Below the pieces are notes generated by a model. That model was given only the letters and a program-made list of their open reading frames with translations, ran no database searches and had not been told where the DNA came from. A stretch of DNA of 64,000 bases, from the NCBI GenBank assembly GCA_963642055.1, contig CAVIFQ010000009.1, forward strand, positions 1,322 to 65,321, written 5' to 3'. A program made the position numbers and the translations under genes. Within the stretch, counting starts at the first letter, position 1, and the number at the start of each line of letters is the position of its first letter. Source of the stretch: Roseburia hominis. GTDB lineage: Bacteria > Bacillota_I > Bacilli_A > RFN20 > CAG-826. Below, in pieces: positions 33,734-56,910 of the stretch.

Positions 33734-33763
33734 TTGATATTCGCGCGGGGGGGGGCGCATACT
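33734..33763 (+). promoter_or_regulatory. candidate promoter with a G9 homopolymer in the spacer
   Basis: TTGATA (33734-39), spacer of about 18 nt containing GGGGGGGGG (about 33747-33755), then CATACT. About 50 nt upstream of the SPFH operon ATG. Confidence 0.45.
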
Positions 33764-33812
33764 TTAATAAAAGTTTTACGCGCGCATTTTTGGCGCGAGA
33801 TTGGGGCACAAT

Positions 33813-40081: not shown

Positions 40082-40133
40082 CGAAGTATAAAATAAAGGT
40101 ATTCCTTTTTGACTTAAGGAGGTGAAACAAATC

Positions 40134-41189
40134 ATGAATTACGATAGCCCTTTTAACATTTATTTCGGCGAGCAGCCGAAATGCTTCATACCGAGAAATG
40201 AGCAATTCGACGAGATAGTGTCTACTTTCTCTTCTCCTGATCCTAGGAGCAAAGTCTTTGTGATAACCGGTCCAAGAGGATGCGGGAAAACCGTGCTTTT
40301 GTCGCAGGTAAAAAAGCATTTGGACGATGAACGCGATTGGATAACGATTGACTTGAACCCTTTTCTCGATATGCATCAGCAGCTTGCCTCCTCTCTTTAT
40401 AGTGAGGGCAAGATGAAGCATCTTTTCCTAAAAGCCTCTTTTTCCATCTCTCTTCAAGGCCTCTCCTTCTCCTTGTCTGGGGAAAGCCCGATCAATGATG
40501 TGACGGCCATCATCAAAACGATGCTGAAGCATCTGAAGAAGAGTGGCAAGCGCGTTTTAGTGACCATTGATGATGTCTCTGGCGGCAACAACATGAAGGC
40601 CTTTGTCCAAACCTATCAATCGTTTATAAGAGAGAAATACGACATCTTTCTCTTATTGAGTGGTCTATATGAGAACGTTTCCGATATTTATAACGACAAG
40701 AAACTCACGTTCTTGCTCCGTGCCCCCAAAATATATTTGCCGAAGCTCAATTTGCGCGACATCGCTTATTCTTACCAAAAATACTTATCGCTAGATCAGG
40801 AACAAGCTTTGAAAATCGCCAAAGTGACGAACGGCTACGCTTATGGCTATCAATTGCTTGGCGATCTTCTCTATCGAGCGAAAAAGAGCGAAATCGATGA
40901 AGATATCTTGGCTGAGTTTGACGCTGCTCTTGAAGATAACGTCTACGCAAGGACGTGGTCTAGTTTGTCAAAAAGCCAGCAGGCAATCGCTTTCGCTTTA
41001 GCCGAATCAAAAGATGGGTCGACCAAAGAGATACTTGAGGCTACTGGATTTAAGCCGGCCTCCTTCCAGGTCTTCCGTAAGCGTCTAGCGTATGCTGGAG
41101 TAATCGATATATCGGAACACGGGAAAATCTCCTTCCTTCTTCCGCGTTTCAAGGAATTCGTCCTCTTCCAAAAAATGCTTGGTGAGTAG
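40134..41189 (+). CDS. AAA+ ATPase with C-terminal winged-helix domain (Orc1/Cdc6-like architecture)
   Basis: Start at the ATG 9 nt after AAGGAGGTG. Walker A TGPRGCGKTVL, Walker B VLVTIDDV, C-terminal wHTH-like LSKSQQAIAFALAESKDGSTKEILEATG. Confidence 0.75.
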   Translation: MNYDSPFNIYFGEQPKCFIPRNEQFDEIVSTFSSPDPRSKVFVITGPRGCGKTVLLSQVKKHLDDERDWITIDLNPFLDMHQQLASSLYSEGKMKHLFLKASFSISLQGLSFSLSGESPINDVTAIIKTMLKHLKKSGKRVLVTIDDVSGGNNMKAFVQTYQSFIREKYDIFLLLSGLYENVSDIYNDKKLTFLLRAPKIYLPKLNLRDIAYSYQKYLSLDQEQALKIAKVTNGYAYGYQLLGDLLYRAKKSEIDEDILAEFDAALEDNVYARTWSSLSKSQQAIAFALAESKDGSTKEILEATGFKPASFQVFRKRLAYAGVIDISEHGKISFLLPRFKEFVLFQKMLGE

Positions 41190-41316
41190 CGAATTTCACG
41201 AGAATCCCCGCAAAAACGGCTTGTAGTTTTTGAAATCGTTACAAAGCAGGCCTCTTTTGCGTATATCCTTTTAATAATACGCGCGCGTGCGCGCGAAGAA
41301 ATCCCAGCGAAATCCG

Positions 41317-41350
41317 CCTAAAAAGAAAACGGGCCGTTTTGGGCCCGTTT
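41317..41350 (-). terminator. intrinsic terminator of 41365..42828
   Basis: AAACGGGCC/GGCCCGTTT stem with a T-run on the minus strand. Confidence 0.7.
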
Positions 41351-41364
41351 CCGTTAGGAGCAGT

Positions 41365-42828
41365 TTAGAAGAATCTTTCGACGAGATCGTGAGAGTATTC
41401 AACCGTCTCATCCATGTCGCCGAAGGACATGATCTCGCCAGCGTAGTAGGTGTTGTATTTGCCTTGCATGGCTTCGACTTTGTCGTACCATCCAGCGGCA
41501 TAATCCTCGCTGTAGATGTGTGGGAAGTAGTAGGTCTGGAATTCGTAGATGACTCCATCCTTGTTCTTGCCGACCGTCTTATCGCCTGGGACGCCAACGA
41601 TCTCCATATCCTTGAGGACGGTTTTCTTCGTCTCTTCGTATGGGAGCTCTTTGCCACCGTTCCTGGTCTTGTGGTGACGGAGGACATAGGTGGTGATTGG
41701 CTGATCCGGCTCATTCTTCCAGCGGTGATAATAGATCATGAGGTGACCCATTCTTTCTGGCGCCATATTGTCGACGATGTAGTGCGAGATTGGCGGGTAT
41801 TTGCCTTTCTCGATGATCATGGCCGTGGTGTCATAACGTTCATAGTCGATCTTTGAGAAGAGCGCTCTCTCATCGTCTTTGACGTCAAGCCAGGTGTCGA
41901 GGGATTTCGCCACTGGGTTATCGAGCGGGTTCTTTTCGGTGGCCACTTGAAGCGGGGCGGTGATGATCATCTTGTCGAAGACTTCCTCTTTCCCGTTCAC
42001 CGTGATGGTGACTTTCTTATCATCACGGACGACTTTGGTGATATTCGCTTTGAGGGTCGCTTGATGTTTGAGTTTGGCGTTCAACGCTTCATAAATGGAC
42101 TGGGTTCCATCTTTCCAAGTGAAGAGGTGGAGTGAGACGAAGTCCATCATGGTCTTGAAGTCGAGATATTTGAGGACATAGGCGGCTGGGATCTCATCGA
42201 AGTAGCCGTAGCCAAAGGAAGTGTATGGCTGGACCCAGACTTCCTGAACGAGCGGGCAGCCCACTTTCTCGCAGAAATCTTTGAACGGCATCGCGAGATC
42301 TTTGAGTTTCGGGTTATCGCCTTTGACGGGCTCTCTCCCTGGAGTGACGGCGAAGCCTTCGTATTTTCCGCTCGCTACACCGATATGGCCGCAGATGTCG
42401 TAGCCTTTGTATTCTGTCTCAAGGATCTTGCCGAATTTCTTGAGCTGAGCGGCGAGTTTCTTGAGGTGAATGGCATTGATTGGGTGCTTGAAGAAGTATT
42501 TGGCTGGATTCTTCATCGCCTCGGTCGTATCCCAGCGATGATCGATTCTGCCGTCTGGGTATTTATAGCCGCGGACGAGAGCTGGTCCATCGTGCGTTAC
42601 GCCAGCGAAATCCTCGACGTCTTTGATGGCGTAATAAGTCGGCGCGCCCATGATGGCGCCCATCTCATAACGTTTGCCATTGTGTGTCGGCGAGTGGCAT
42701 TTGCCTCCGACATGATCCGTCTTTTCGTAAATGACGTAGTTGTCGTATCCCTTTTTCTCGAGATACATAGCTGCGCCTAAACCGGCTGGACCGCCGCCAA
42801 TAATCGCAATGCGAATATTTTTGTCCAT
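41365..42828 (-). CDS. FAD-dependent oxidoreductase/isomerase (amine-oxidase fold; resembles polyunsaturated fatty-acid isomerase PAI from memory)
   Basis: Dinucleotide motif IAIIGGGPAGLGAAMYL, then YEKTDHVGGKCHSP...RYEMGAIMG. The specific PAI-like call rests on recollection only. Confidence 0.6.
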   Translation of the reverse strand: MDKNIRIAIIGGGPAGLGAAMYLEKKGYDNYVIYEKTDHVGGKCHSPTHNGKRYEMGAIMGAPTYYAIKDVEDFAGVTHDGPALVRGYKYPDGRIDHRWDTTEAMKNPAKYFFKHPINAIHLKKLAAQLKKFGKILETEYKGYDICGHIGVASGKYEGFAVTPGREPVKGDNPKLKDLAMPFKDFCEKVGCPLVQEVWVQPYTSFGYGYFDEIPAAYVLKYLDFKTMMDFVSLHLFTWKDGTQSIYEALNAKLKHQATLKANITKVVRDDKKVTITVNGKEEVFDKMIITAPLQVATEKNPLDNPVAKSLDTWLDVKDDERALFSKIDYERYDTTAMIIEKGKYPPISHYIVDNMAPERMGHLMIYYHRWKNEPDQPITTYVLRHHKTRNGGKELPYEETKKTVLKDMEIVGVPGDKTVGKNKDGVIYEFQTYYFPHIYSEDYAAGWYDKVEAMQGKYNTYYAGEIMSFGDMDETVEYSHDLVERFF

Positions 42829-42873
42829 GTGTTTTCTCCTTTTTAAAATGGATTTTATCCATTATAAAACACA

Positions 42874-42918
42874 ATCGGTAAAATTCTAGTGATATAAAAT
42901 TATTAACGTTTTACCGAT
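42874..42918. promoter_or_regulatory. 10-bp perfect inverted repeat ATCGGTAAAA-N25-TTTTACCGAT in a divergent promoter region
   Basis: Read directly between 42828 (minus-strand gene start) and 42963 (plus-strand gene start). Confidence 0.5.
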
Positions 42919-42962
42919 ATTTTTCCCGTTTTTATCGCCATTTTTGTCTTTATAATAGGGAT

Positions 42963-44291
42963 ATGAACGCGAAACGATACGATAGTTTTTACGCTTTAGT
43001 AAGCGAACAAAAGAAAGACAATATTGCTCTTCTTTATGAAGAAGACGGGGCGATATGCTCATTGACCTATGATGAGCTTGCGCAAAAAATCGAGGGATAT
43101 CCGTTACGCGAAGAATCATGCATCGGCATCCTCGCGGAGAATAACCTAGAAACTGTTGTCTCGATTTTTGCCTACGCGAAAGCGAAAAGGCAGATTGTCT
43201 TGCTGAACCCGCTCGATGATATCGCTCTGCTCAAAAAGCAGATCGCTGCCGCTGACGTATCCTTTTTGATTGGGAGAGAGGAACTTAAAGAAGTCCTTAA
43301 AGATAGCCTCGTCGAAAAAAAACTGCCGAATAACGGGAATGTTCTCTTCTTTACTTCCGGAACTACATCAAGTGGGAAAGCGGTGGTTTTAAGCGAAGAA
43401 TCTTTATGCGCTTCCGCCTATAACGGCGGGAGCTTATTGCCTCTAGAAGAAAGCGATACCTTGCTTTCGATCTTGCCTCTTAGCCACGTCTTTGGCTTTG
43501 TCTGCTCCTTGCTTTGGGGATTATCGTTCGGCGCGAAAGTGGCGCTTGGGCGAGGGATGAGGCATATGATGGATGATCCTAGATATTTCAAGGCCACCGT
43601 CATTTCCATGGTCCCGCTTTTATCATCGTTCCTTGCGGTAAATAAACTTTGGAACCCGGAACTTAGGCTCGTTTTAATTGGAGCAGGGCCCATCAAGAAA
43701 GAGATTATCGATATTTATAAATCTAGTGGCATCAAAGTGAGTTTTGGATATGGGCTCAGCGAGACGAGCTCTGGCGTGGCCTTATCTATCGGCGAAGACC
43801 CTTTTGCGATGAAGGTTTGCCCGGACGATACGATCAAAATAGGGGAAGACGGAGAGATCTTGATCCATGCTCCGACTTGCTTAATGAAGGGTTACTACAA
43901 AAGCGATGATAGGAGTTATCTTTTAGACGACTATCTCCTCTCAGGGGATTTAGGCTATATCGATGAAAAAGGGCTTTTGCATATCACCGGGAGAAAGAAA
44001 GATATCCTCGTTCTAAATGATGGCACCAAAATCTATTGCCCCGAATACGAGGAGAGTTTAAGGAAACTGCTCCCGGGAGCCGATTTGGCAGTTGCCTTAA
44101 AGGACGATAAATTGACGCTTTTCATTTACGAAGAAAAGATGACTCCTAATTTAGAAGACATCATCAACGAATTCAATTTGTCGCACCCCCGAGGCGCGAG
44201 AGTCGCTAAAATAGAGTATTTGAAGAGCAAATTGCCGCGCACGCAGACTGGCAAAGTCAAAAGATATGCCTTATTAGGAGAGAAACAATGA
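42963..44291 (+). CDS. AMP-binding acyl-CoA/acyl-ACP synthetase-like ligase
   Basis: AMP-binding signature FFTSGTTSSGKAV. GYGLSETSSG. C-terminal PRTQTGKVKR. Confidence 0.8.
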   Translation: MNAKRYDSFYALVSEQKKDNIALLYEEDGAICSLTYDELAQKIEGYPLREESCIGILAENNLETVVSIFAYAKAKRQIVLLNPLDDIALLKKQIAAADVSFLIGREELKEVLKDSLVEKKLPNNGNVLFFTSGTTSSGKAVVLSEESLCASAYNGGSLLPLEESDTLLSILPLSHVFGFVCSLLWGLSFGAKVALGRGMRHMMDDPRYFKATVISMVPLLSSFLAVNKLWNPELRLVLIGAGPIKKEIIDIYKSSGIKVSFGYGLSETSSGVALSIGEDPFAMKVCPDDTIKIGEDGEILIHAPTCLMKGYYKSDDRSYLLDDYLLSGDLGYIDEKGLLHITGRKKDILVLNDGTKIYCPEYEESLRKLLPGADLAVALKDDKLTLFIYEEKMTPNLEDIINEFNLSHPRGARVAKIEYLKSKLPRTQTGKVKRYALLGEKQ

Positions 44292-44542
44292 CCCGCGAAG
44301 AAATCAAGAACACCATCGTGAAAATCCTCAAAGAGAACTTAGACGAATGGGAAAACCGCGAAATAGAGGAGACGAGCGTCCTCAATACCGATGTCTCCGT
44401 CGATTCGATCCGCTTCATTTACCTTATGACGAAAGTGGAAGCGGCATTCGGCATCAATGTGCCGGAGAAGAAGTGGGCGAAACTTGTTACCTTTGGTGAT
44501 GTCATCGACGCCGTGGAAGAGGAAGTGCTCAAAAAAGCCTAG
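44288..44542 (+). CDS. acyl carrier protein-like
   Basis: 84 aa. ATGA overlap with the ligase. Phosphopantetheine-site-like DVSVDSIRFIYLMTKVE. Confidence 0.7.
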   Translation: MTREEIKNTIVKILKENLDEWENREIEETSVLNTDVSVDSIRFIYLMTKVEAAFGINVPEKKWAKLVTFGDVIDAVEEEVLKKA

Positions 44543-44545
44543 ACT

Positions 44546-45250
44546 ATGGCCGATTTTTCTAGAAATCTCAAAATCAAGGCGAGCCAAGCTGATGCTTCTT
44601 TGCGCCTCCGCCCGTCCTCTTTATTGACCCTCCTTCAGGAAATATCGATTGAGCATACGGAGATTCTTGGCTATCCCCGCGAGACGACGCTCGATAAAGG
44701 CCTATTATGGGTCGTAGCCAAAGAGCGCATCGCGATAAAGAGGATGCCGAAATACGATGAGAGCATTGAACTCATCACTTATCCGAGCAAAACCATGCAC
44801 GTGCTTTTTCCGCGTAGTTATTTACTGAAGGACGATAAAGGCGAAAGCATCATCGAAGGCAGCGCGATTTGGGCTTTGATCGATACGAAGAGCCGGAAAA
44901 TGGTAAGCCCAGTTGAGCACCATATCGATATCCCCGATTTAAGCGAAGGGCGCCCCTTTATTTTCCCACTTGGAGGGAAGATGCCTTCTTCTTTCTCTAG
45001 GGAAGCGGAAATAAAGGCCTCCTATTCCTTATGCGATCTCAATAAGCATCTGAACAACGCCTTTTATCTTGATATCGCCGAGGACTTATTGCCTATCCCC
45101 TATTTGCTGGAGCATGAAGTTAAGTTCATCGAAATCGAATATCTCCATGAGGTGAAGATAGGAGAGTCACTGCTTATCGATTACGAAAAAGTGGGCGATG
45201 ACTGTTATTTCTCTAGTCCCGCCTTCAAATTAAAACTGTCGTTCCGTTAA
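44546..45250 (+). CDS. acyl-ACP thioesterase family protein
   Basis: 234 aa hotdog-type. LRLRPSSLLTLLQEISIEHTE...GLLWVVAKERIAIKRMPKYDE typical of FatA/B-like bacterial thioesterases. Confidence 0.7.
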   Translation: MADFSRNLKIKASQADASLRLRPSSLLTLLQEISIEHTEILGYPRETTLDKGLLWVVAKERIAIKRMPKYDESIELITYPSKTMHVLFPRSYLLKDDKGESIIEGSAIWALIDTKSRKMVSPVEHHIDIPDLSEGRPFIFPLGGKMPSSFSREAEIKASYSLCDLNKHLNNAFYLDIAEDLLPIPYLLEHEVKFIEIEYLHEVKIGESLLIDYEKVGDDCYFSSPAFKLKLSFR

Positions 45251-45262
45251 AGAAAAAGGGCT

Positions 45263-46021
45263 TTAGGCCCTATTTTCTTTCTTGATCTTGAGACCGATTT
45301 CTTCAAAAGCGTGCTCTTTTTGCGGAGATTTTTCTTCTCTTTCTGTAACGCTCAGGTCTACAAGTTCTTTTTCTGCCTCGCTCATTTCTTCGTTCGCTAA
45401 TTCGATCACTTTGTGGCCACGGTGAATGTAGAGCCTCGTATTCATGAGCATGTCGCAGTAGATTCTCTCAAGCTTCTTTTGGCTGTATTTGGTGTTGAAG
45501 GAGAAGCCAACGCTTTCGAGAAGATCATATATGCACTCATCGAAAGAGCTGCTCCTGATTTTCATTTGGCAGTAGAGAGTGGTCATAAAAGAACGGACGG
45601 CTCTCTCGTTCTTATCGTCTTTGATATTAGAGTACTTATAGATGAAATGCATGAATTCGGTGTTATAGCTATCTTCTCCTTCATCGCAGTAGAAGTCCTC
45701 TTCATAAGCGAGGAAGTCCTCTTTGCTGGGAGGAAAATAGAAAGAGGCTCTGCTTGCAAGGGCGTTGACTCTCACCACGTCCTCGTCTTTATCGAGGAAG
45801 TCGGAGATAAGCATGAAGCGGTTATCGCCGATTCTTTCGACACGGAAATACTTTTTACGGTGCTTCTTGTGGAATTTCTCTAAAGCAAGAAGGGTATCGT
45901 TTTTATCGACGCCGTCATAATAATGATCGATTATCATATCGATGTTTTCATTTGTGGCGATTCCGTATAGATGGGCGATGGATTTGAAAATCCGTTCGTA
46001 TTCGGCCTGGCTTATTTTCAT
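45263..46021 (-). CDS. hypothetical protein
   Basis: 252-aa ORF with coding-like composition. No motif recognised. Confidence 0.55.
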   Translation of the reverse strand: MKISQAEYERIFKSIAHLYGIATNENIDMIIDHYYDGVDKNDTLLALEKFHKKHRKKYFRVERIGDNRFMLISDFLDKDEDVVRVNALASRASFYFPPSKEDFLAYEEDFYCDEGEDSYNTEFMHFIYKYSNIKDDKNERAVRSFMTTLYCQMKIRSSSFDECIYDLLESVGFSFNTKYSQKKLERIYCDMLMNTRLYIHRGHKVIELANEEMSEAEKELVDLSVTEREEKSPQKEHAFEEIGLKIKKENRA

Positions 46022-46121
46022 ATGCGGTTATATTTCTCTCTTACCCAAATTGTCGCAGTTTCCGCCCTTAAAGTTAAGATGCATCTGTTTGGCCACCCCT
46101 TTCGAGTGACTGGTCAAAATG

Positions 46122-46234
46122 AGTTTTTTGATACTTTGGGCTCAAAAGCACGATGAAAGTATCAAAAAAGTCGGTTGGTCAATGGAGTTTTTTGAGTGTT
46201 TAGGCTCAATTTCTGGCTGAAACACTCAATTTTC
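46122..46234 (+). repeat. left copy of about 113-bp direct repeat (two hairpin modules) abutting the stop codon of 46235..47665
   Basis: Module 1: TTTTTTGATACTTT-N18-AAAGTATCAAAAAA. Module 2: TTGAGTGTTT-N18-AAACACTCAA. Confidence 0.9.
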
Positions 46235-47665
46235 TCATTTGAAAAGCTCGTCGATGGTGATGACGGATGAAAAATCGTCTTTGTACGGGCTATCCGCTAG
46301 ACCATAGGTGGTGATGAGAGTAGGGACGATCCGATACTCCTTTTCAACTCTTTTCCTCAAGACATCGATCTTGTTCATGAGATTGAGGTGATATTCCTTG
46401 TCGACTTTGAATTCCGCGCTGAGGAATTTCATCTCGCAGAGGGAGATGATGTTGTCTTTGCGTTCGATAAGCAAATCGATCTGCGCGCCTTTTTCCTCTT
46501 TTTCTTTCATGAACCACGAGAATCGCATGGTGTTGATGCCTCTTATGCCGAGGGCGCGTTTGATTTCATCGAGGTGGGAAAAGCAGAGATTCTCGAAGGA
46601 GACGCCAACCCAATTGTTCTTATTGGAATCAGAGAAGAAATCATGGTCGAGCGAAGTTTGCTCATATACGTATTTGAGATAGAAAAGGCAAAATGGATCG
46701 ATCACCTTGTAGCGTTTTTTGTTCTTGCTCTCCTTGTATGGTACGTATTCGATGATGAAATCGCTGTGCTTTAAGGCTTTTAAAGTGTCCCCTACGATCG
46801 CCCCATCGGCGATATTGAGCTCCTTTAAAAGTTCTTTCCTCGTGTAGCCTTCTCTCTTCTTTGCGAGCGTCAAAATGAATTTTTTGGTGAGCTTCTCGTT
46901 ATCGAAGCTCGATGAGAGCAGATTATCAAATTCATTAGCCATCTTCGCGTCTTTTTTGAAGAAGAGATTGTCGATGTTCTCTTCTAGAGACATATGGTCG
47001 TCATAATAAGAAAGATAGTAGGGGATGCCGCCCAAAACCATATTCAGCATCGCGATTTTATAATTGCTTGTGTTGACGCCGAGGCTTCTTAAAAACTGTG
47101 CCGATTCCTTCAAGGAGAAAGGGGAGAGGCGAATGCTATAGGTAAGGCGGTCGTATAAGCCGCCGTGAGCGTTTATGAGATGATTATTGATCCAAGAGAT
47201 GGCAGAGCCACAGACAATGAACATAAGGTCTTTTTGCTTGCTTCCCCATTGGTTCCAGAACCAGGAAAAAGAACTCAAGAAAGAGGAACGCGGGGTATCT
47301 AGCCAAGGGAGCTCGTCAATGAAGACAACGTGCCTATTCCCATCGCGCTTGCTCTCCAATAAAGAGATTAGGAGCGTGAAAGCCTCAATCCAGGAACGAG
47401 GCTTCTTCCCTTTCTTCAATCCTTGGGAGAGGAGAGAACCGTAAAAAGATTCTAGCTGCGCCCTCATTTTCCCTCTCTCGTCATTTTGAAGGTCATCGGG
47501 GGCTGAACCGATGTGAGTGAAAATCATCTCATCGGCGAAAAGATTGTTTATCAAATACGTTTTGCCGACCCTTCTTCGCCCGTATACGGCCACAAGCTCT
47601 GGCTTGTCACTCGCGAAAAGGCGTTTCAGTTCTTTTATTTCTTTCTCTCTTCCGATGATTTCCAT
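46235..47665 (-). CDS. AAA/Arch-ATPase family protein with C-terminal PD-(D/E)xK-like motif (DUF234-type; paralog of 10358..11794)
   Basis: Walker A YGRRRVGKTYL, Walker B VFIDELPW, nuclease-like QIDLLIERKDNIISLCEMKF. Confidence 0.82.
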   Translation of the reverse strand: MEIIGREKEIKELKRLFASDKPELVAVYGRRRVGKTYLINNLFADEMIFTHIGSAPDDLQNDERGKMRAQLESFYGSLLSQGLKKGKKPRSWIEAFTLLISLLESKRDGNRHVVFIDELPWLDTPRSSFLSSFSWFWNQWGSKQKDLMFIVCGSAISWINNHLINAHGGLYDRLTYSIRLSPFSLKESAQFLRSLGVNTSNYKIAMLNMVLGGIPYYLSYYDDHMSLEENIDNLFFKKDAKMANEFDNLLSSSFDNEKLTKKFILTLAKKREGYTRKELLKELNIADGAIVGDTLKALKHSDFIIEYVPYKESKNKKRYKVIDPFCLFYLKYVYEQTSLDHDFFSDSNKNNWVGVSFENLCFSHLDEIKRALGIRGINTMRFSWFMKEKEEKGAQIDLLIERKDNIISLCEMKFLSAEFKVDKEYHLNLMNKIDVLRKRVEKEYRIVPTLITTYGLADSPYKDDFSSVITIDELFK

Positions 47666-47710
47666 CTTCGTTGCCTCCTTCTTTTATGATGATTATACAC
47701 TTTTAAAAAT

Positions 47711-47824
47711 AGTTTTTTGATACTTTAGGCTCAAAATCGCGTCGAAAGTATCAAAAAAGTCCGTTGGTTGATGGAGTTTTTTGAGTATTTCGACTTAAAT
47801 TTGAGCCGAAACACTCAATTTTTT
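47711..47824 (+). repeat. right copy of about 113-bp direct repeat, about 45 nt upstream of the start of 46235..47665
   Basis: Same two-module structure. By eye about 85 percent identical to 46122-46234. Confidence 0.9.
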
Positions 47825-47931
47825 AATTTTGGATTTGATGGTTTTTCTTATCGTTTCTCTCTTCTGCGAGAAAGTAGACACCGGTAAAGCCTTCTTTGAG
47901 AAAGGACCCGCCAAATGTATACTGCTCTTAG

Positions 47932-49374
47932 ATGAAAAGACTAGAAAATAAAAGAGGCGCGGAAGAGAAAGAAGCGGTGGTTGCTGAGCGCGTCATCCCT
48001 CCTTTCGAAACCTTTGGCTTAAAAAAGAAGGATTACGTCGGCTACGCCCTCGGCGACTTCGCGGGGTGTCTTTGCTTCTCGACGGTCACGACGATCCTCC
48101 AGAAGTACTACACGGATATCCTGGGGCTCGCGCCGCTATTCATCATGATCATGTTCATCGTCGCCCGCATCTGGGACGCCATCAACGATCCGATCATGGG
48201 GCGCATCGTCGATATCCGCCATCCTGGTAAAGAGGGCAGATACCGCGTCTGGATGAAGTGGGTGGCCATTCCTCTTGCTCTATCTACCATCCTCATGTTC
48301 CTCCCTTGGAGCGGCCTCGCCGAGAAGATGGGCGCCCTCGGCACGATGGTCTACGCGACTATTACCTACATCGCCTTCGGGATGCTCTACACCGTCCATC
48401 AGATCCCTTATGGGTCTTTGGCATCCGTCGTCACGACCGACGCGAAAGAGAGGAACAAGCTCTCCGTCTTCAGGAGCGCCGGCGCCGCTTTGGGCTCTAT
48501 CCCAGTCTTAATCATCACGATGGTCTGGTCGAAGAAGGTCGAGCAGGATGATGGCACAATTGTCAGCCAAATCCAGTATTTGCCGATCATAATCGGGGTG
48601 TCAGTTTTAGCCATTATCTCCGCAATAACCCTCTTTTTTGCTTATAAATGCAATAAGGAAAGGGTTTTTGACGGTGAAAAAGAACAAGAAAAAGAAAGTA
48701 GTCGCGTCGAGATAAAGCCGCTTTTGAAAAACCGCAATTACGTATCGGCTTGTTTCTCTATCATGCTTCTTTTGGCGGGGATGATGTTCATCCAATCTTT
48801 CTATGTTTATCTCTTCGCTATTTCATTCTCGATCAGCTGGATGTATTTCGCTTCGCAGCTTTGCCTTTTCCTTCCTCTAGCCGTGATGCCTTTCTTCATC
48901 GAGTCTTTTAACGATAAGCGCAGCGTGAAGTGGCTTTGCGTTTTCGCTGGCTTTCTCGCTTCTTTCCCTTATTTCGTCTTATCGCTCATGAAAGAGGCGA
49001 TTTTCGCCACTCCGTTCCTCTTTTTGCCTTTCTCTTTCATAAGCGGCATTGGCATTTCTCTTCTCGCTCTCGAGATTCCTTCTCTTGCCACTCTCGCTGC
49101 TGGTGAGGCTATAGATAAAACTGGCAATGACAACGGTCGAACCTCTAGAAGCGTTTATTCATTCTTCCAAAAAATGGGTGGGGTAATCGCTGCAATTGCC
49201 GTCAATATGACCCTTATCAACATTGATTACAAATCGCCTTACGAGACCCTTCAAAACGCGGAAACAATGGAAAGGGTGTACTCTATGGCAACCTTGATAC
49301 CTGGGATTTTGTTCTCACTTGTTGCTTTCATCCTCCTTTTCATATATCGAGATAAAAAGAGCAAGGCGGTCTAA
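47932..49374 (+). CDS. GPH (glycoside-pentoside-hexuronide):cation symporter family transporter
   Basis: 480 aa, 12 TM. Signature ARIWDAINDPIMGRIVD. Confidence 0.8.
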   Translation: MKRLENKRGAEEKEAVVAERVIPPFETFGLKKKDYVGYALGDFAGCLCFSTVTTILQKYYTDILGLAPLFIMIMFIVARIWDAINDPIMGRIVDIRHPGKEGRYRVWMKWVAIPLALSTILMFLPWSGLAEKMGALGTMVYATITYIAFGMLYTVHQIPYGSLASVVTTDAKERNKLSVFRSAGAALGSIPVLIITMVWSKKVEQDDGTIVSQIQYLPIIIGVSVLAIISAITLFFAYKCNKERVFDGEKEQEKESSRVEIKPLLKNRNYVSACFSIMLLLAGMMFIQSFYVYLFAISFSISWMYFASQLCLFLPLAVMPFFIESFNDKRSVKWLCVFAGFLASFPYFVLSLMKEAIFATPFLFLPFSFISGIGISLLALEIPSLATLAAGEAIDKTGNDNGRTSRSVYSFFQKMGGVIAAIAVNMTLINIDYKSPYETLQNAETMERVYSMATLIPGILFSLVAFILLFIYRDKKSKAV

Positions 49375-49706
49375 AATAGCGGTAATCGCAGTACTTTTCT
49401 CTCACAACCGCGTACCTTATAACGATATGTGAAACAAATATTCAAAAAGTTTCACATTTGAATTTTCGTTTTTAATTTCTTGTAGAAAAAAAGTTGAGCT
49501 ATATGGAACTCATTGAATTGATACATGAGAAAGAGGTGATTGTCTCAAGACTCGAAAAGATGATCTGCGGTTCAATCGAGATTAGAAACAAAAACGAGGA
49601 TATCAAATTCTTTCTTAAGCAATATTGTTTTACGAACGTGTAGGCAAAGTTGCATAGATGTAGTCAAATGCCCTGATATTTTATTCCGCAGTTTTCATCT
49701 CTTTTC

Positions 49707-49882
49707 GTGTGTTGAATCGTGTGTTGCGTCATGTGTTGTTAAGCCAATTAAAAGACTTCGCAAAGAGCAAAAGGTTGGAAAATTCCATTTTTAGGTCATT
49801 TTCAAGGTTGGAAAATTCAAGAAAATGGGCGTTTTCAAGGTTGGAAAATTCAAGAAAAGTGGCCTTTTCGAGGTTGGAAAAG
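49707..49882 (+). repeat. two word arrays: 3 x GTGTGTTG (period 12-13) then 4 x AGGTTGGAAAA(TTCAAGAAAA) (period about 33)
   Basis: Read directly upstream of 49938. Confidence 0.88.
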
Positions 49883-49937
49883 TTGATTGATGATATGAAA
49901 ACAGGCATAATGAGTGAAGAAAAAGGAAGTGAGGCAG

Positions 49938-51263
49938 ATGCTAAAGAGAAAGTTTGAGGCAAAACTAGAAGAATGGCTGAAGAGTGACAAAGTATTGCTC
50001 GTCGATGGGGCTAGACAAGTCGGAAAAAGCTTTTTGATCGACTATTTCTGCAAAAAGCATTTCGCGAATTACGTCCAGATTAACCTCGCTTTGGAAAGCG
50101 GGGCAATCGAGGCTTTCCGCTCCGTGAAAGACGTCGATGGCTTTTTATTGGCAGTCAGTGCCTTTTCATCTTCTCCTCTCGTTCCTAGAGAAACCGTCAT
50201 TTTCATCGATGAGATACAACTTGCGCAGGGTGTTGATTTTCTCACGCTTTCCAAAGGCCTCGCGCTCGATGGGCGTTATCGGTTCATCTTCTCGGGCTCG
50301 TTACTTGGAGTGAATGATTTCACCCCAAGGCTAAATCCGACAGGGTATTTGTACAAAGAGACGATGTATCCTCTCGATTTCGAGGAATTTCTCTACGCGA
50401 ATGGCGTGAATGAAGACGTTATCGCGACTTTGGAATCGTGTTTCAAGGAAAGAAAAGAGGTTCCTTCTTTCATTCACGAAAAGATGATTGATCTCTTCTA
50501 TCTATATCTATTGGTTGGAGGGATGCCAGATGCCGTGAATAGCTTTCTAGCGAGCAATGACCTCCAGACGATGAGAATAGTTTTCAAATCCATCGAATCC
50601 TTCTACCACGACGATATTGCGAAGTACGCCAAAAACGAGGATAAGCCCTACATATTGAGCGCTTACGATTTACTTCCGAGTGAACTGAACAGCAAATCCA
50701 AGCGTTTTATCCTCTCTAAGCGCGGAAATGGGTATTCCCTCAAGCGGAGCGAGAATGACTTCTTGTGGATGAAAGACGCTGGGATCGCCCTACCCGTCTA
50801 TAACGTCGATGAGCCGAAAATACCGCTTTTACTAAGCAAAAACAGCACGCTTTTCAAACTTTTCGCGAATGATGTGGGTTTACTTTCCTACCGCCTTTTC
50901 AATACGGGCGTCGAAAAGAAAATCCTCGCCCACGCAAAAGACATCAATTTTGGGAGTATCTTCGAAAACGCGGTCGCGATGGAATTAAACGCCCACGGCT
51001 TCAAAGATCATTTGTTCTATTTCTCGAGCAAGAAGCAAGGTGAGGTCGATTTCTTGCTTGAATACGAAGGCAAACTGTTGCCGATTGAAGTGAAATCAGG
51101 CAAAGACTACAAACGTCATGTGGCTCTTAACAATCTGCTCTCCAATAAGGAATACGATATTGAAGAAGCCTATATCTTCGGCAACTGCAATCTGGAAAGA
51201 AAAGGCAAGAAGACGTACTTCCCGATTTATATGATCGACTACGTCCGCCAAGAAGAGATTTAG
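49938..51263 (+). CDS. AAA_14-type ATPase with C-terminal PD-(D/E)xK-like motif (DUF4143-type)
   Basis: Start at MLKRKFE. Walker A DGARQVGKSFL, Walker B IFIDEIQ, C-terminal GEVDFLLEYEGKLLPIEVKSGK. Confidence 0.8.
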   Translation: MLKRKFEAKLEEWLKSDKVLLVDGARQVGKSFLIDYFCKKHFANYVQINLALESGAIEAFRSVKDVDGFLLAVSAFSSSPLVPRETVIFIDEIQLAQGVDFLTLSKGLALDGRYRFIFSGSLLGVNDFTPRLNPTGYLYKETMYPLDFEEFLYANGVNEDVIATLESCFKERKEVPSFIHEKMIDLFYLYLLVGGMPDAVNSFLASNDLQTMRIVFKSIESFYHDDIAKYAKNEDKPYILSAYDLLPSELNSKSKRFILSKRGNGYSLKRSENDFLWMKDAGIALPVYNVDEPKIPLLLSKNSTLFKLFANDVGLLSYRLFNTGVEKKILAHAKDINFGSIFENAVAMELNAHGFKDHLFYFSSKKQGEVDFLLEYEGKLLPIEVKSGKDYKRHVALNNLLSNKEYDIEEAYIFGNCNLERKGKKTYFPIYMIDYVRQEEI

Positions 51264-51614: not shown

Positions 51615-52291
51615 ATGAAAAAGAGCGATCAGAGGAAAAAACATTCGATAATTGCGGGGGGGGGGCCTTACTTTTTGCTAATTTTCTCCTTGCGTCAGTA
51701 GGATTTTCCGCATGGGTAATCCAAACAAGTGTCGAAGCAAAAATCAAGGCAAGCGCCGACGATGTTATAGACCTCAATCAGTACTTTTACTTCCCGGATG
51801 ATCCAACGATTTTTGATTATACGAGTGATGGGCTAGTAAAAGACCACACTGTAGATTTGCAAACATTGGAAGGAATTATCGAGGTTCCATTTCGCATAGA
51901 CACAAAAAAAGGAAGAATCAAAGACCATCTTTCGACAAACGCTACAGGCTTTACTTTGACGACAATCTTAATTGATAAAAACAAGAATTTGGATCTTTTT
52001 TCTGTTTGTTCTATCAATGAGGTTAAATTGGCAATTTCAAACAAGACAAGTAACTTTTCTGATGATGACTATTCCTTGATTTCCTCGTTTAACTCTGTGT
52101 CGAAGAAAGAACTTAATTCAAACTTCCTTTTATCGAATTTTTCTTATATAAAATCTTCTTTGGTCTACTTTTCCACCAGGTATAGTATCACTTTCAACAC
52201 AGCTAATTTTAAAACGGATGTTTACGACAAACTGAGCAACGGCTCTTTTCATTTCGCTTTTAAGGCAGGTGGGATTTTCAATTATGAATAA
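51615..52291 (+). pseudogene. signal-anchored protein gene interrupted by a poly-G frameshift (phase-variable candidate)
   Basis: ATG at 51615 (MKKSDQRKKHSIIAGGG) runs into a stop after the G tract. The +1 frame continues ALLFANFLLASVGFSAWVIQTS... to 52291. The track only reports 51857..52291. Confidence 0.6.
51656..51665 (+). repeat. homopolymeric G tract (about 10 nt)
   Basis: attgcGGGGGGGGGGcctta, counted across the 51660/51661 line break. Confidence 0.85.
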
Positions 52292-55178
52292 CGCCAAGAA
52301 AATCCCTTTGGTCTTGTCAGCGTCGTTCTTAATGTCATATGTTGGCTATGGCGGTTGGGTTTTTAGCGCGTTTAAAGAAATGAGCGAATTTTCTACAAAA
52401 CCGGCACGAAAAGTTTGCTATATTAAAAATTCAAACGGAACCACTTACTATACTTCTTTGGATTACGCGCTTAATGTTGCTTCCGAAAATGGAATTAATG
52501 ATGAGATCTATGTAATTCCACAAGAAGGCACGGAGTTATGCCAACCGGTTGAAATTAGAAAATCGCACACTATAAAAAGCGGCGATTCTTTAAAACTTCC
52601 TTACGATAGTGAGACAACGAAACCAAGCGATTACACTGGAAGCGCGGTAATAGATAGTTCCAACAGCAATGTTAATAGTTATCGAAGAACACTTGTTGAA
52701 ATCTTGGATGGTTCGCAACTGATAATCGAAAGTGGTGCTTCCATGATCATTGGAGGAGTTTTCAACACTAAAGGCGTAACCGGAAAATACACTGAGCTTG
52801 ATTTGGATACGGATTCTTCGATTGTTTGCAGCGGGACAATGGAAGTTTACGGCTATATTAAGGAAAAAAACGGCAAATATTCTTCCAAGACTGATGGCAA
52901 AGAGCTAAACGAAAATGATCAAAACCGTTATATAAATTTTACTTCGACCGGATCGTTGACTTGCCCGTTGGCAATCAAAGATGCGCAATCCGGCGGCGTT
53001 ATGACAAGCCTTAACGACTCGGGGGTATGCCCAACGAATGAATTTAGCATTCAAGCCATCCAAACCTACACAACATTCGAATACGGTTCAAAAGCGGTTG
53101 CCTTGGCACGTATGACTGCCGCTAGCCAGAATATGGAAAGAAGGTGTGGCTTCATTGGAAAGGATGGGCCGACGAGCAGGCCCGCAGAAAATTGCATCTT
53201 TTACCTTCAATCAGGCAGCTCTTTGTCTATGGAATATGTTCCTTCAAAACCTGGGATTACTAATACTGAAGCTGGCACAGACTATTCAAAATTTGTTGTA
53301 AATGGAAAAGTTAATTTAGGGAGTCTTTATTTAGATGTTACTGTCACCACGATTGATACAACCAAATATTATTTTCCGCTATCTTATTTGATGAATTTGT
53401 ACATAGAAAACGGTGCTGAATTTGTTGTCGACCATCAATTTAAAATTTATCCAGGATCATCTTTGTTGATTAAAAATGGCGGCAAACTTAGCCTGAATTC
53501 TGACATGGTGGTCTATACATGCTCGGACTTGGCAAATTTAAATTCTTCTACGTCTTTTATATATCCCGTTTCAAAAATCGGGGCTGATGGAAGATTTATT
53601 GATAATGGGGCTTTCGTGCTTTCCAATCAAGGACATTTTGGAGGAAAAATCAATCATACAAATCCTGGTTATTCATCGATTGACTTTTCAAATGCCGAAT
53701 CAACGAACCTAGCTGCAGTTTCAATAGAAGGAACTACAAAAATAGCCATTAATAAGCAAGCAACTGGCATTTTCAAGACATCTCGCGGTTTTAAAGAAGC
53801 TTTAATTGCTGCAAAACAAATTGCTAGTTCTGCGAAAGAAGGAAGCGTGTTTTATTGGAAGGGTAATTACGAATTAACTGTGAATGTTTCCGTTGAATTG
53901 ACGAAGAAATATGATAATAGCGTATATGGCTATACCATCAGTTATGCCGATGATGCCAATGGCACTAACGCTGCGTTCTTATCCGCGGAAAACTCAACAG
54001 ATATAAAAACTTATCAGGCTAGCAATCAAAAATATATTAGGTTTGCAATCAAACGCACGGCTGGAATACAAGTTGATTTCGGCGACGGAGCAAAAATCGA
54101 AATAGATCAATCCAAATGGTATAAGGTTGGTGATGAAGACATTCGCGTCTATATCACGCCATTCGAGGGTGTTAGCGTAGATATTACCACTACCGGAAAT
54201 AGCGGTGCAGGACATGTTGTGTATACCTTATATGAGTCAGAACAAGAGAATGGGACTTTTGAACAAATCGGGTCTAACAGCACAGGCAAATTAAGCGTTA
54301 ATGTCATTAAAGGTAGATACTTCAAATTCACAACTTATTCACAAAATGGGTATTACTTTACAACGAAAACCGTGTTAAAGAATGGAACGAAAATAGGTGA
54401 GCACGGAAATAACAGCAATCTCGGAAACGATATTGTTTATCTTGCTGATGGTAACTATAAATTTGATTTTGGCTGGAATTTTTGTATTGCAGAATGGACT
54501 AAGGTGCTTCTTGCCGATGGCACCTACAAACAAGCTGGAGAAATCAAGACCGGAGACATGGTCATCTCGTTTAACCATGAGAACGGTAAATTCGAACCTA
54601 ACCGCGTTATCGGGAATGACGACATAAGCAAGCAAGCAGAGACGTATAATGTCGTGCATCTGGAGTTCTCGAACGGCAAATCGACTGATTTTATATATGA
54701 GCATGGATACTTCGACAAGACGCTTAACAAGTATGTGTATCTGCACGAAGACGATTTCGCCGATTATATAAATCACGATTTCGTTTTCTATGAGGACGGG
54801 TCAGTCACTGTGGGAAAATTGATTCGCGGATCAATCAGCAAGATTTTTACAAGGCTGGCGTCTCCCGCAACTGCCAATCATTTGAATTTGATTGTAGATG
54901 ACATGCTCTCAATTGGTGGTGGGCTTGACGGTCTCTTCAATATCTTTGAATACGATCTCGATACCCTTGCTTTCGATAAGGAAAAGATGAATGCCGATAT
55001 CGCCGAATATGGTCTATTGGGATACGAAAGCTTTGAGAAGTACTTCCCAAAGGAGATATACGATTTATTGCCTTGCAAGTATTTGGGTGTCTCTATCGGA
55101 AAAGGTCTCATCACCTGGGATATTTTCGAGGGATATGTCAACAAATGGAAAGACCAGCTACTCGAGAATCTAAAATGA
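52284..55178 (+). CDS. large secreted or anchored protein with C-terminal Hint (Hedgehog/intein-like) domain
   Basis: ATG overlaps the upstream stop (ATGAATAA). N-terminal signal anchor KKIPLVLSASFLMSYVGYGGWVF. Residues about 734-876: CIAEWTKVLLADGTYKQAGEIKTGDMVIS ... IYEHGYF ... ANHLNLIVDDMLS. Confidence 0.75.
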   Translation: MNNAKKIPLVLSASFLMSYVGYGGWVFSAFKEMSEFSTKPARKVCYIKNSNGTTYYTSLDYALNVASENGINDEIYVIPQEGTELCQPVEIRKSHTIKSGDSLKLPYDSETTKPSDYTGSAVIDSSNSNVNSYRRTLVEILDGSQLIIESGASMIIGGVFNTKGVTGKYTELDLDTDSSIVCSGTMEVYGYIKEKNGKYSSKTDGKELNENDQNRYINFTSTGSLTCPLAIKDAQSGGVMTSLNDSGVCPTNEFSIQAIQTYTTFEYGSKAVALARMTAASQNMERRCGFIGKDGPTSRPAENCIFYLQSGSSLSMEYVPSKPGITNTEAGTDYSKFVVNGKVNLGSLYLDVTVTTIDTTKYYFPLSYLMNLYIENGAEFVVDHQFKIYPGSSLLIKNGGKLSLNSDMVVYTCSDLANLNSSTSFIYPVSKIGADGRFIDNGAFVLSNQGHFGGKINHTNPGYSSIDFSNAESTNLAAVSIEGTTKIAINKQATGIFKTSRGFKEALIAAKQIASSAKEGSVFYWKGNYELTVNVSVELTKKYDNSVYGYTISYADDANGTNAAFLSAENSTDIKTYQASNQKYIRFAIKRTAGIQVDFGDGAKIEIDQSKWYKVGDEDIRVYITPFEGVSVDITTTGNSGAGHVVYTLYESEQENGTFEQIGSNSTGKLSVNVIKGRYFKFTTYSQNGYYFTTKTVLKNGTKIGEHGNNSNLGNDIVYLADGNYKFDFGWNFCIAEWTKVLLADGTYKQAGEIKTGDMVISFNHENGKFEPNRVIGNDDISKQAETYNVVHLEFSNGKSTDFIYEHGYFDKTLNKYVYLHEDDFADYINHDFVFYEDGSVTVGKLIRGSISKIFTRLASPATANHLNLIVDDMLSIGGGLDGLFNIFEYDLDTLAFDKEKMNADIAEYGLLGYESFEKYFPKEIYDLLPCKYLGVSIGKGLITWDIFEGYVNKWKDQLLENLK

Positions 55179-55225: not shown

Positions 55226-56194
55226 CTATCTGAAATACTCGATAAACCCTGCAATCGCGCCTTTAATCTCGTTGAGGAATTCGTAATCCTCGTATAAGCA
55301 GATCTTGTCATCATCGAAATCATTATCGATGTCTTTAATCGCTTTTTTGAGGAACGGCAACATCTCAGGTGCGGTCAAAAAGGAGCCAGAGAGGACGATT
55401 TTCTGAAAGGAGATAAGCACATCGGCGTTATAGATGGCAAAACGCAGGGCTTTCATCACGGCGGCTAAGTAAGACTCATTTTCGAGTATAAGCTTTGTGC
55501 CTTCTTTTTCGTCGATATCCTTATTGAACAAAGAGCTATATGAGATAGCCTCTTCTAAGGTTTGCCCTTCGTAAATCGTATGGCCAAGTTCGCTTTCTTC
55601 GCTCAAGGGATGACCATTTACGTAAATCGAAGAACCAACGCCTGGGCCGTATTTGACGAGCAGGAAGTTCTCGTTTTCTTTGTGAAATAGATAATAGATC
55701 GCGCTTAAGGCGGCGACGTTATTGATGATGGTGTAGGGAATAGAGAGAGAATCGAGAATCGATACGATTTCTTTATAGGCGACTGAAGAAACAAACGATG
55801 AGCTTTTCCCGCGCATCGTCACGCCGATAAAGAGGATTTTCTCTTTGCTAGAAAGAATAAAATCCTTGATTGAGGTTTTTGAGGTGTCGCTAGAAGAGAG
55901 GGGATTGCCCGCAAAATCCATTTTGCACAAGTAGGAGCGGTGCTTCCTCACGTCAATCCCGATGAAGGCCCCGTAAGTTGGGTTCAGGCAAAGCGTTAAT
56001 TCTTTTCTGCCGCTTCGCGATTCATCGACGTTCTTGCTCTCGTTTATCATGCCGGAGGATAAAAGCGGTTTTAAGGCCAAAGTGAGTCCAGCCGGGGTCA
56101 AAGAAAGGAGCGAGGAGAGCTTGCTCCTTGAGCTTTCCTTTTTTGCGAAAAGGATTTTGATGATTTCTTTTTGGGTTAAAGTGAGTCCCGTCAT
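55226..56194 (-). CDS. ROK family transcriptional regulator
   Basis: Start moved to MTGLTLTQKEIIKILF (ATGA overlap with the upstream gene). N-terminal wHTH plus ROK sugar-kinase-like body (GIDVRKH..., GPGVGSSIYVNGHP). Confidence 0.75.
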   Translation of the reverse strand: MTGLTLTQKEIIKILFAKKESSRSKLSSLLSLTPAGLTLALKPLLSSGMINESKNVDESRSGRKELTLCLNPTYGAFIGIDVRKHRSYLCKMDFAGNPLSSSDTSKTSIKDFILSSKEKILFIGVTMRGKSSSFVSSVAYKEIVSILDSLSIPYTIINNVAALSAIYYLFHKENENFLLVKYGPGVGSSIYVNGHPLSEESELGHTIYEGQTLEEAISYSSLFNKDIDEKEGTKLILENESYLAAVMKALRFAIYNADVLISFQKIVLSGSFLTAPEMLPFLKKAIKDIDNDFDDDKICLYEDYEFLNEIKGAIAGFIEYFR

Positions 56195-56910
56195 TGCACC
56201 AATAGTGTAACCCCAGAGAGGAGAAGTAGCACGCACGTAATCTTCATGAAAAGGTTTTTGGAAAGCTTCGGGGCGATGAGGGCTCCTAGTAGAAGAGAGA
56301 GAACGGTGACTCCCGCCCCAATCCCCAAAAGAATGAGGGCGTGCGTGGTGAAATAGCCGCTTAGATAATGGTTGGTGAATAAAATCGTGTTCAAGATGAG
56401 CCAAAGCGGGGCTAAAGTCGCCCTGAAGGCGTTCTTGTCCTTGATTTCGTGGATGGCGTAAACGACCACAAACGGGCCTCCGCTCACGAAGAGCTTATGC
56501 ATGATGCCCCCAAGGAAGAGAAAGATGAACATAAGATACTGGGGCAAAGACACCTTGCTGAAATCGAGGAAGAAGAAGGCGATGGCGATGACGATGATCA
56601 AAGCAGCATAAACATAAAGCAGTATCTTATGCTCCATCGGTATCATCTCTACGAGATATCCAGCCCCAAATCCCAAGCCGACAAAGAAGAAGATAATGAG
56701 GAAATGCTTCCAGTCGATATCCTTGAAATGGAAGATGAAAATATACAAACAAACAATCATCGCCACGAGATTCAAGACGCTTTTGGCGGTGTTTTCGCCT
56801 ACTAATTCAAGCGAAAAAGGCATCGCGAGGACAGTGCCAGCAAAGCCGGTGATGGTCTGGATGATGTTGCTTAAGAAGATTATGAGAATAAAAAGGATAT
56901 CTTGGATCAT
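56191..56910 (-). CDS. TauE/SafE family sulfite/organosulfonate exporter-like membrane protein
   Basis: 239 aa, about 7 TM. N-terminal IIQTITGFAGTVLAMPF typical of the family. Confidence 0.7.
   Translation of the reverse strand: MIQDILFILIIFLSNIIQTITGFAGTVLAMPFSLELVGENTAKSVLNLVAMIVCLYIFIFHFKDIDWKHFLIIFFFVGLGFGAGYLVEMIPMEHKILLYVYAALIIVIAIAFFFLDFSKVSLPQYLMFIFLFLGGIMHKLFVSGGPFVVVYAIHEIKDKNAFRATLAPLWLILNTILFTNHYLSGYFTTHALILLGIGAGVTVLSLLLGALIAPKLSKNLFMKITCVLLLLSGVTLLVQ

Follow-up and report, generated by a model that had tools for sequence, protein, structure and literature searches.

We analysed a 64,000-nucleotide stretch of contig CAVIFQ010000009.1 (assembly GCA_963642055.1, Roseburia hominis), hereafter called the window, and focused on a gene on its forward strand that encodes a predicted secreted precursor of 964 residues (52284..55178, read from an ATG, with an alternative GTG start at 52269). 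In the account that we favour, residues 734-964 of this precursor form a self-contained, exchangeable C-terminal autoprocessing cassette, in which a Hint (Hedgehog/intein-like) domain (residues 734-877) is followed by an obligatory helical subdomain of about 87 residues (878-964). Probably the cassette releases the protein by self-cleavage, and it may also join the upstream cargo to something. We put the probability of this account at about 0.5, a figure that gives its overall weighting against the rival explanations and is not the product of the probabilities of the individual steps.

The precursor starts with MNNAKKIPLVLSASFLMSYVGYGGWVFSAF..., where a K-rich, basic n-region precedes a 24-residue hydrophobic segment, and about residues 1-31 (52284..52376, + strand) were assigned to an N-terminal signal peptide or signal anchor with the end motif VGYGGWVF and a hydropathy maximum of 1.38 at residue 9. 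The following cargo (about residues 32-733; 52377..54482, +) is uncharacterised, rich in Ser, Gly, Thr and Asn, and closes with a conserved ...YLADGNYxFDFGW; it returned no Pfam or PDB match, even by profile. The Hint core occupies 54483..54914 (+) and was delimited by profile comparison with PDB, by the Pfam family PF01079 and by AlphaFold2 (AF2) modelling with Foldseek. It carries the motifs F733-C734-IAEW, TGD758MV, IYEH807GYF and ANH866LN868LIVDDMLS876, with 88 residues remaining after S876, and its residues of note are Asp758 of the GD pair, His765, Asp779/780, the block-B His807 (54702-54704, +), His831, His866, Asn868 and Ser876. A previous interpretation of the DNA made from the letters alone (the sequence-only reading) had described a 964-residue open reading frame (ORF) with a signal anchor, some 700 residues of beta-rich repeats and a terminal Hint domain. 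The ORF, the signal segment and the Hint motifs that it quoted were all recovered. The repeats were not borne out, as self-BLAST detected no internal repeats in the cargo. The residues that it had taken for a C-terminal H/N block are present and belong to the penultimate Hint strands, not to an intein-type terminal His-Asn.

Taken alone, the window protein is a marginal Hint candidate. Individual scans returned the Pfam model Hom_end_hint at E=0.085 and an NCBIfam intein model at E=0.056, both over residues 732-764 and below the cut-offs, and a phmmer search of PDB with the whole protein gave no match. Homologs were then collected by phmmer with residues 694-964, which matched 2,235 representative clusters (50% identity) at E<=1e-3, 702 of them at E<=1e-30; the first figure is a lower bound for the family in which Hint and tail occur together. 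From this family of more than 2,000 clusters, 195 modules were aligned for all the conservation counts given below, and 35 diverse modules were used to build a profile. The profile was compared with PDB and matched BIL2 of Tetrahymena thermophila (6TMM/6Y75) with E=1e-10 over profile positions 5-152, together with the intein-annotated entry 8W20 (4e-6), Hedgehog HhC (1AT0/6TYY, 1e-4) and a BIL domain of C. thermocellum (2LWY, 0.02). When the 35 modules were scanned singly against Pfam, 19 of them matched the Hedgehog Hint module PF01079 at E<=0.01, 14 Hom_end_hint, eight Hint_2, seven Intein_splicing and six, weakly, PT-HINT; a single member (P0091) exceeded the PF01079 gathering cut-off, with 37.8 bits against 29.7.

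The last 234 residues of the precursor were modelled by AF2, resulting in a structure with a beta core, a mean predicted local distance difference test score (pLDDT) of 95.7 and a predicted template modelling score (pTM) of 0.91. The best Foldseek matches of this model in PDB were the Hedgehog HhC structures 6TYY (E=1.6e-9) and 1AT0 (2.9e-9), with a target TM-score of 0.72-0.77, followed by BIL2 and many inteins, each alignment covering only about 150 columns. The search returned 57 matches at E<=1e-3, and all 50 of the matches listed were Hint domains (Hedgehog HhC, BIL2 and inteins) with target TM-scores mostly of about 0.6-0.8. Profile, Pfam and fold results, together with the Cys and His conservation described below, thus settle the Hint question through the homologs in spite of the marginal single sequence: as judged by these comparisons the assignment is sound at the family level, and residues 734-964 almost certainly include a genuine Hint fold. 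The Hint domain proposed by the sequence-only reading therefore held in both profile and fold searches, with the window protein itself remaining below threshold, and so did its expectation of a conserved Cys.

Cys734 (54483..54485, +) occurs in 195 of the 195 aligned modules, is aligned with Cys1 of Hedgehog HhC and stands exactly at the module boundary; it is the predicted nucleophile, and Phe733-Cys734 the predicted scissile bond. The block-B His, which is the essential residue of the TxxH motif (Thr being the usual first residue), is found in 191 of the 195. On this conservation and on the modelled fold, the domain is likely to be catalytically competent for cleavage between F733 and C734. 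In Hedgehog, Asp46 is the general base that activates the incoming hydroxyl; an Asp or Glu that may be its equivalent lies at or adjacent to profile position 46 in 143 of the 195, with the register uncertain by one residue. Some members have His instead, and the corresponding segment of the window protein contains Asp779-Asp780. Immediately before the Cys, 75 modules have Ser, 30 Gly, 21 Thr and 16 Asn, and the window protein has Phe, while the residue after it is Ile, Leu, Val or Phe in the family. The position aligned with Asn143 of BIL2 is occupied by Pro (116), Thr (33) or Ala (19) and by Gly in the window. Since this intein-type Asn is missing, no canonical C-terminal cleavage or splice junction is expected between the Hint core and the tail.

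The tail (54915..55175, +) had been regarded in the sequence-only reading as a separate 88-residue peptide appended to the Hint domain, and here the data led to a different picture. Its mean pairwise identity among the modules is 0.50, compared with 0.45 for the Hint core, and 13 of its 75 columns are conserved at 90% or more, compared with 23 of 147 in the core. Seven tail columns reach at least 98%. Among them, Asn886 (Asn152 in alignment numbering; 54939-54941, +), which belongs to a GLFN motif, is invariant in 195 of 195, and D171, I172, G176, Y199 and K206, again in alignment numbering, are also at or above this level. The motifs Asp-Ile...Tyr-Gly-Leu, Tyr and Lys-Gly (D905, Y909, Y933 and K940 in the window protein) are conserved at 96-99%. 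In the AF2 model the tail consists of an extended segment, which includes Asn886, and four helices, which include Asp905, Tyr909, Tyr933 and Lys940, packed with the Hint core as one compact unit (the pTM of 0.91 given above). When the tail was modelled by itself the helices were unchanged, with a pLDDT of 88.9 compared with 95.7 in context. Scans by profile against PDB and by individual members against Pfam and NCBIfam returned no credible match for it, and Foldseek with the tail-only model found nothing better than E=6 in PDB or BFVD. The tail is acidic (isoelectric point 4.4), contains 18% aromatic residues and has no hydrophobic or transmembrane-like stretch. A search for tails lacking the Hint domain, made with a word-indexed tool that lists short proteins only, returned only short ORFs, and the two that were examined in their genomic context proved to be decay remnants. 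The tail is thus neither cargo nor toxin in its own right, but very likely an integral part of the cassette, a new helical subdomain whose conservation matches that of the Hint core.

The exchangeable nature of the cassette emerged from the comparison of whole-protein homologs, which fall into two length classes of about 970 and about 745 residues. In the longer orthologs the cargo is 67-74% identical to that of the window protein and the module only 38-42%. In the shorter ones the cargo is 68-73% identical and the protein ends at ...FGW(K/N)xx, just before the Cys position; as the next gene starts 287 nt downstream, no hidden module is present at these loci. The reverse is seen in proteins with a cargo of only 22-30% identity, whose modules are 60-90% identical to that of the window, as in P0037 (cargo 24%, module 90%) and at locus L007 (module 74%). 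Among the orthologs the discordance amounts to 74% (cargo) vs 39% (module), and in the comparison with the closest full-length ortholog the DNA is 0.72 identical up to the Cys codon and 0.50 identical beyond it. These discordant identities point to recombination of Hint plus tail as a unit with its edge at the Cys, which, on the sequences compared, is the sole explanation of the pattern.

The phmmer matches listed all cover query positions of about 40-262, corresponding to protein residues of about 733-955 and hence to nearly the whole tail. The module generally closes its carrier, with a median of three residues beyond the module end; the few longer C-terminal extensions are mostly acidic and of low complexity, with no transmembrane or sorting signal evident. 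A C-terminal transmembrane or sorting signal placed after the module was rejected on these grounds. Carriers are secreted, adhesin-like proteins from uncultured gut bacteria and range from about 330 to 4,938 residues. Big_2, Flg_new (Listeria-Bacteroides repeats), MBG and YDG are among the domains of their cargo, and 145 of 190 full-length members have signal-like N-termini. A genome scan with a single protein identified one locus, L007, in 'Bacillales bacterium UBA6356', and one relative is labelled 'Mollicutes bacterium'. The module gave no match in plasmid (PLSDB) and phage (INPHARED) records, and a full-text literature search retrieved no description of a bacterial Hint domain with a conserved tail. 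Tail-only or partial-module ORFs occur as decay remnants in several genomes, two of them (P0278 and P0275) on at least 24 contigs each. Of the two remnant loci (L011, 5001-5264, and L014, 5001-5363), one abuts a V-type ATPase operon and the other follows a Flg_new cargo gene, with loss of the Cys and of most of the Hint domain. As a separate observation, one protein of 3,496 residues (P0135) contains two internal Hint-plus-tail copies (residues 336-558 and 1784-2003), each followed by further protein; it might be a polyprotein if both copies are active, or a gene-calling fusion.

Among characterised systems, the module most resembles the Hedgehog Hog domain (PF01079; 1AT0/6TYY), both structurally and in its presumed way of working. 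Common to the two are a signal peptide, an N-terminal cargo, the Cys, a Hint domain of about 145 residues and a C-terminal extension of about 65-100 residues that stays with the Hint domain. Hedgehog HhC is the top Foldseek match of the module (E=1.6e-9) and its most frequent Pfam match (19/35), and its first half is co-linear with the module, including Cys1, G13, GD24-25, the acidic residue near position 46 and His72. The sterol recognition region (SRR) of Hedgehog, like the tail described here, has no homolog in PDB (PMC7906309). The differences are nevertheless substantial. The tail has neither sequence nor fold similarity to the SRR, and the PF01079 match ends at about model position 146 of 213. 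With its four short helices and its acidic, aromatic composition the tail looks soluble, whereas the SRR is a membrane-associated helix-loop-helix (PMC7906309). The Gly-Cys-Phe junction is not conserved and there is no equivalent of Cys143, Ser142 being followed by Ile or Met. Moreover, the module is bacterial and sterol transfer as such is unlikely. In its junction and in its lack of an SRR the module departs from Hog, and the Asp46 equivalent, of uncertain register, is only partly conserved. A Hint domain with a conserved extension at the end of a secreted protein is the arrangement by which Hedgehog couples cleavage to the attachment of cholesterol, a coupling in which it has been described as singular (PMC7242414). 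Bürglin (2008) reported Hint-like domains at the C-terminus of certain secreted proteins of proteobacteria and myxobacteria, leaving the origin of Hog open (PMC2362128).

The best profile match across the whole Hint core was BIL2 of the Tetrahymena BUBL protein, in which a Hint domain activates an upstream C-terminus as a thioester, as the one described here would (PMC9200820). According to the same paper, from which the identity of 6TMM was also taken, this protein produces ubiquitin-like proteins in activated form with no input of energy (PMC9200820). BIL2 differs from the module in ending with His-Asn (it was crystallised as N143A), in having no C-terminal helical extension and in belonging to a eukaryotic, intracellular, ubiquitin-like context. 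The BIL A and B domains are bacterial self-cleaving Hint domains that lie in secreted or variable proteins, in regions that are not conserved (PMC5874633), and the C. thermocellum BIL (2LWY) was a weak match (E=0.02 by profile, 8e-4 for one member); BILs, however, are internal, with variable flanks on both sides and usually a C-terminal Asn, whereas the module is C-terminal, lacks that Asn and has a conserved tail. PT-HINT (PF07591) also lies near the C-terminus of large secreted bacterial proteins and was weakly matched by 6/35, but there the Hint domain precedes a variable toxin, while here it precedes a conserved sequence with no immunity gene. Protein splicing by an intein was rejected, as the module has no C-terminal Asn junction and is not inserted in a host protein, and the orthologs devoid of the cassette simply end at the junction. 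LPXTG/sortase signals and the C-terminal domain of the type IX secretion system are related to the cassette by functional analogy and not by homology. They too are generic, cargo-independent and exchangeable C-terminal elements of varied surface or adhesin-type proteins that are removed at maturation; the cassette, in contrast, would be autocatalytic with no separate transpeptidase, and its attachment of cargo to an acceptor is hypothetical.

A working scheme can be proposed from these data. As its signal-like N-terminus suggests, the precursor would be exported through Sec. The invariant residues and the fold indicate that Cys734 would then attack the Phe733-Cys734 peptide bond in an N-to-S acyl shift, assisted by the block-B His807. 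Hedgehog, inteins and BIL domains are established examples of this chemistry. A nucleophile would resolve the resulting thioester, separating the 733-residue cargo from the 231-residue cassette, and the tail would stay on the Hint domain because no intein-type C-terminal Asn is available to detach it. More speculatively, the tail might serve as a built-in acceptor-recognition or regulatory element, comparable to the SRR or adduct recognition region (ARR) of Hog domains, and the C-terminus of the cargo might be transferred to a cell-envelope or other acceptor instead of being simply hydrolysed. A Hint domain of about 140 residues suffices for simple cleavage, yet the extra 87 residues are just as constrained, which leads us to lean slightly (about 45:35) towards such a Hog-like scheme; transfer in place of hydrolysis is accordingly a tentative proposal, somewhat short of an even chance. 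Because the tail is acidic and looks soluble, a sterol or lipid acceptor drawn from within the membrane appears unlikely; more plausibly the acceptor would be an envelope glycan, a lipid head group or an amine. In its fullest and rather doubtful form, the proposal would make the cassette a bacterial counterpart of Hog, an autocatalytic and sortase-independent device covalently ligating the C-termini of many different surface proteins to an envelope acceptor recognised by the tail, for which a glycolipid, a teichoic-acid or polysaccharide hydroxyl, and a peptidoglycan or lipid amine are candidates. With the same doubt, the setting of this device would be the uncultured gut Bacilli that carry the label 'Mollicutes bacterium', a group in which srtA/B are missing from some orders (PMC10868615).

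Several findings weigh against the cassette as we interpret it. The window protein by itself is under every Hint hidden Markov model threshold; the Thr of the block-B TxxH is replaced in the family by Ile, Val or His, and by Ile in the window; the residue preceding the Cys is Phe in the window and Ser, Gly, Thr or Asn elsewhere, and not the Gly of Hedgehog; the tail does not resemble the SRR of Hedgehog, and its soluble, acidic character disfavours a membrane-drawn acceptor, as stated above. Furthermore, orthologs without the cassette exist, which makes it dispensable for the cargo in some strains and would fit a simple removable pro-domain equally well. The first two of these points, with the weak matches of some members to AXH, a Hint-like but non-catalytic fold, could also be read as signs of a Hint-like C-terminal domain that has a structural or binding role and does not cleave at all. 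We consider this very improbable, since the absolute conservation of Cys1 and the near-absolute conservation of the block-B His in the aligned modules are the signature of an active Hint domain, and since the module boundary falls exactly at the Cys.

The most serious competitor accepts cleavage and limits it to hydrolysis: the cassette would be a removable C-terminal pro-region, for example an aid to folding or secretion or a switch for release. Water would act as the nucleophile, and the tail would only stabilise or regulate the Hint domain. It shares all the catalytic evidence with the favoured account and gains from the cargo orthologs that exist without a cassette, from the frequency of cassette decay remnants and from the fact that no acceptor-related partner gene is conserved beside the diverse carriers. 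On the other hand, BIL and PT-HINT domains cleave with a Hint core of about 140 residues alone, whereas here about 85 further residues are at least as conserved, and the invariant Asn, Asp, Lys and Tyr of the tail are hard to explain by stabilisation only. The orthologs lacking the cassette also show that it is not needed for folding of the cargo, which contradicts an obligatory intramolecular chaperone and is compatible with either anchoring or release. We regard hydrolysis alone as a possible outcome, with odds clearly below even. An improbable special case of transfer is a BUBL-like ligation to a protein or peptide, in which an amine would resolve the thioester to give an isopeptide or amide link, the donor being a Lys or the N-terminus of the partner protein described below, another surface protein, a peptidoglycan stem peptide or a host protein. 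The BUBL locus provides the best sequence match among solved structures, and a co-transcribed gene for a membrane-anchored partner is conserved alongside this cargo family, with a small upstream gene in the same position at L010; the partner, however, goes with the cargo, cassette-less orthologs included, and not with the cassette, and diverse carriers have other neighbourhoods. Finally, the sequence-only reading had drawn an analogy with both polymorphic toxins and Hedgehog proteins. Its Hedgehog half, a Hint domain with a retained C-terminal accessory region, fits the data much better, and the release of a toxin-type tail found no support. Weak PT-HINT matches (6/35) and an order of Hint domain and C-terminal peptide that superficially recalls pre-toxin architectures are outweighed by a tail that is conserved and not polymorphic in the 195 modules, packs with the Hint core, has no terminal Asn at its junction with it, and belongs to a module unmatched in the plasmid and phage records. 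The absence of an immunity-like gene downstream, already pointed out in that reading, was corroborated, the next gene being a convergent ROK-like ORF (55226-56404, minus strand). A toxin was rejected as the role of the tail, which is conserved, not separable by known Hint chemistry and without an immunity gene; that the Hint domain frees the 88 residues as an effector is scarcely tenable.

Should the proposal of a bacterial Hog counterpart in its fullest form prove true, the Hint cassette might be the prokaryotic relative, long sought, of the Hedgehog-type combination of Hint and adduct-recognition modules. A bacterial module whose nearest structural match is Hedgehog HhC makes the question of the origin of Hog approachable by experiment. 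Passage of the thioester to an envelope acceptor, should it occur, would make the cassette a new means of anchoring surface proteins without an enzyme, of interest for lineages in which sortases are reported missing. In this respect, thin-walled and wall-less species are found in the uncultured Bacilli orders RFN20, ML615J-28 and RF39, the first two of which reportedly have no srtA/B sortases (PMC10868615); no LPXTG-type ORF was found among the ORFs of the window. Compact domains that cleave or ligate themselves are also useful as protein-engineering tools. The Hint-plus-tail unit is not captured by Pfam or NCBIfam, and its recognition would let annotators split the cargo from the self-removing cassette in thousands of hypothetical proteins.

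Immediately upstream of the precursor gene lies a partner gene (51615..52291, +) that overlaps its start by 8 nt and is translationally coupled to it. The gene is frameshifted in the window, where a tract of ten G's (51656..51665, +) puts the ATG at 51615 out of frame; with one extra G, 11 G's restore an intact ORF for a signal-anchored protein of 226 residues. The tract is a candidate either for phase variation or for a homopolymer assembly error. A second long homopolymer, of nine G's, was noticed elsewhere in the window (33747-33755), about 45 nt upstream of an SPFH/Band-7 zinc-ribbon gene (33801-34862). The partner is homologous to genes for 165-207 residues that overlap the big gene in the relatives L004 and L001, and a small upstream gene occupies the same overlapping position in L010, beside a homolog 29% identical, and in L007, whose small gene resembles the partner only weakly (E=0.01 over 29 residues). 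It accompanies the cargo, also in the orthologs without the cassette, and not the cassette itself, and the neighbourhoods of the diverse carriers consist of varied, unrelated genes. In both the partner (VGFSAWVI, 51701-51721, +) and the main protein (VGYGGWVF, 52344-52364, +) the hydrophobic segment ends with the motif G[YF][SG]xW[VTI][IVF], and similar G[YF][SG]xW motifs occur in the homologs L001, L007 and P0034. Such N-termini may constitute a specialised class of signal peptides, with a possible resemblance to SipW/TasA-type signals.

The partner and surface-protein genes have a G+C content of 0.385 (window 52001-54000), compared with 0.44-0.49 in the flanks, and relatives of the gene pair (L004-L006) adjoin phage-type integrases; the low G+C content and the integrase-adjacent relatives suggest that the locus is a horizontally acquired islet. 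No convincing flanking repeats delimiting an island were found around it, and scans of its surroundings for promoters, terminators and Rfam families gave nothing above chance.

Some further features of the window were recorded. Two paralogous predicted lipoproteins of about 815 residues (4010-6451 and 30500-32977, both on the minus strand) have lipobox-like sequences (...LSTGC and ...ALGAC, respectively), Ser-rich linkers and a common motif, EE.LLK.YCG.V.P.PGK; neither has a Pfam match at E<=1e-5. A 33-nt unit (AAGGTTGGAAAATTC...) is present in three to four tandem copies at 49771-49881 (+), just upstream of an AAA_14/DUF4143 ATPase gene (49914-51263). The regions 8184-19944 and 40122-51263 are dense in defence-type and orphan ATPase genes, among them an SLFN-g3 helicase (8184-10061), two Schlafen AlbA_2/HATPase_c_4 genes (11906-13252 and 16746-18155), GmrSD (13506-16124) and five ATPase_2/AAA_14/DUF234/DUF4143 paralogs located at 10358, 18481, 40122, 46235 and 49914.

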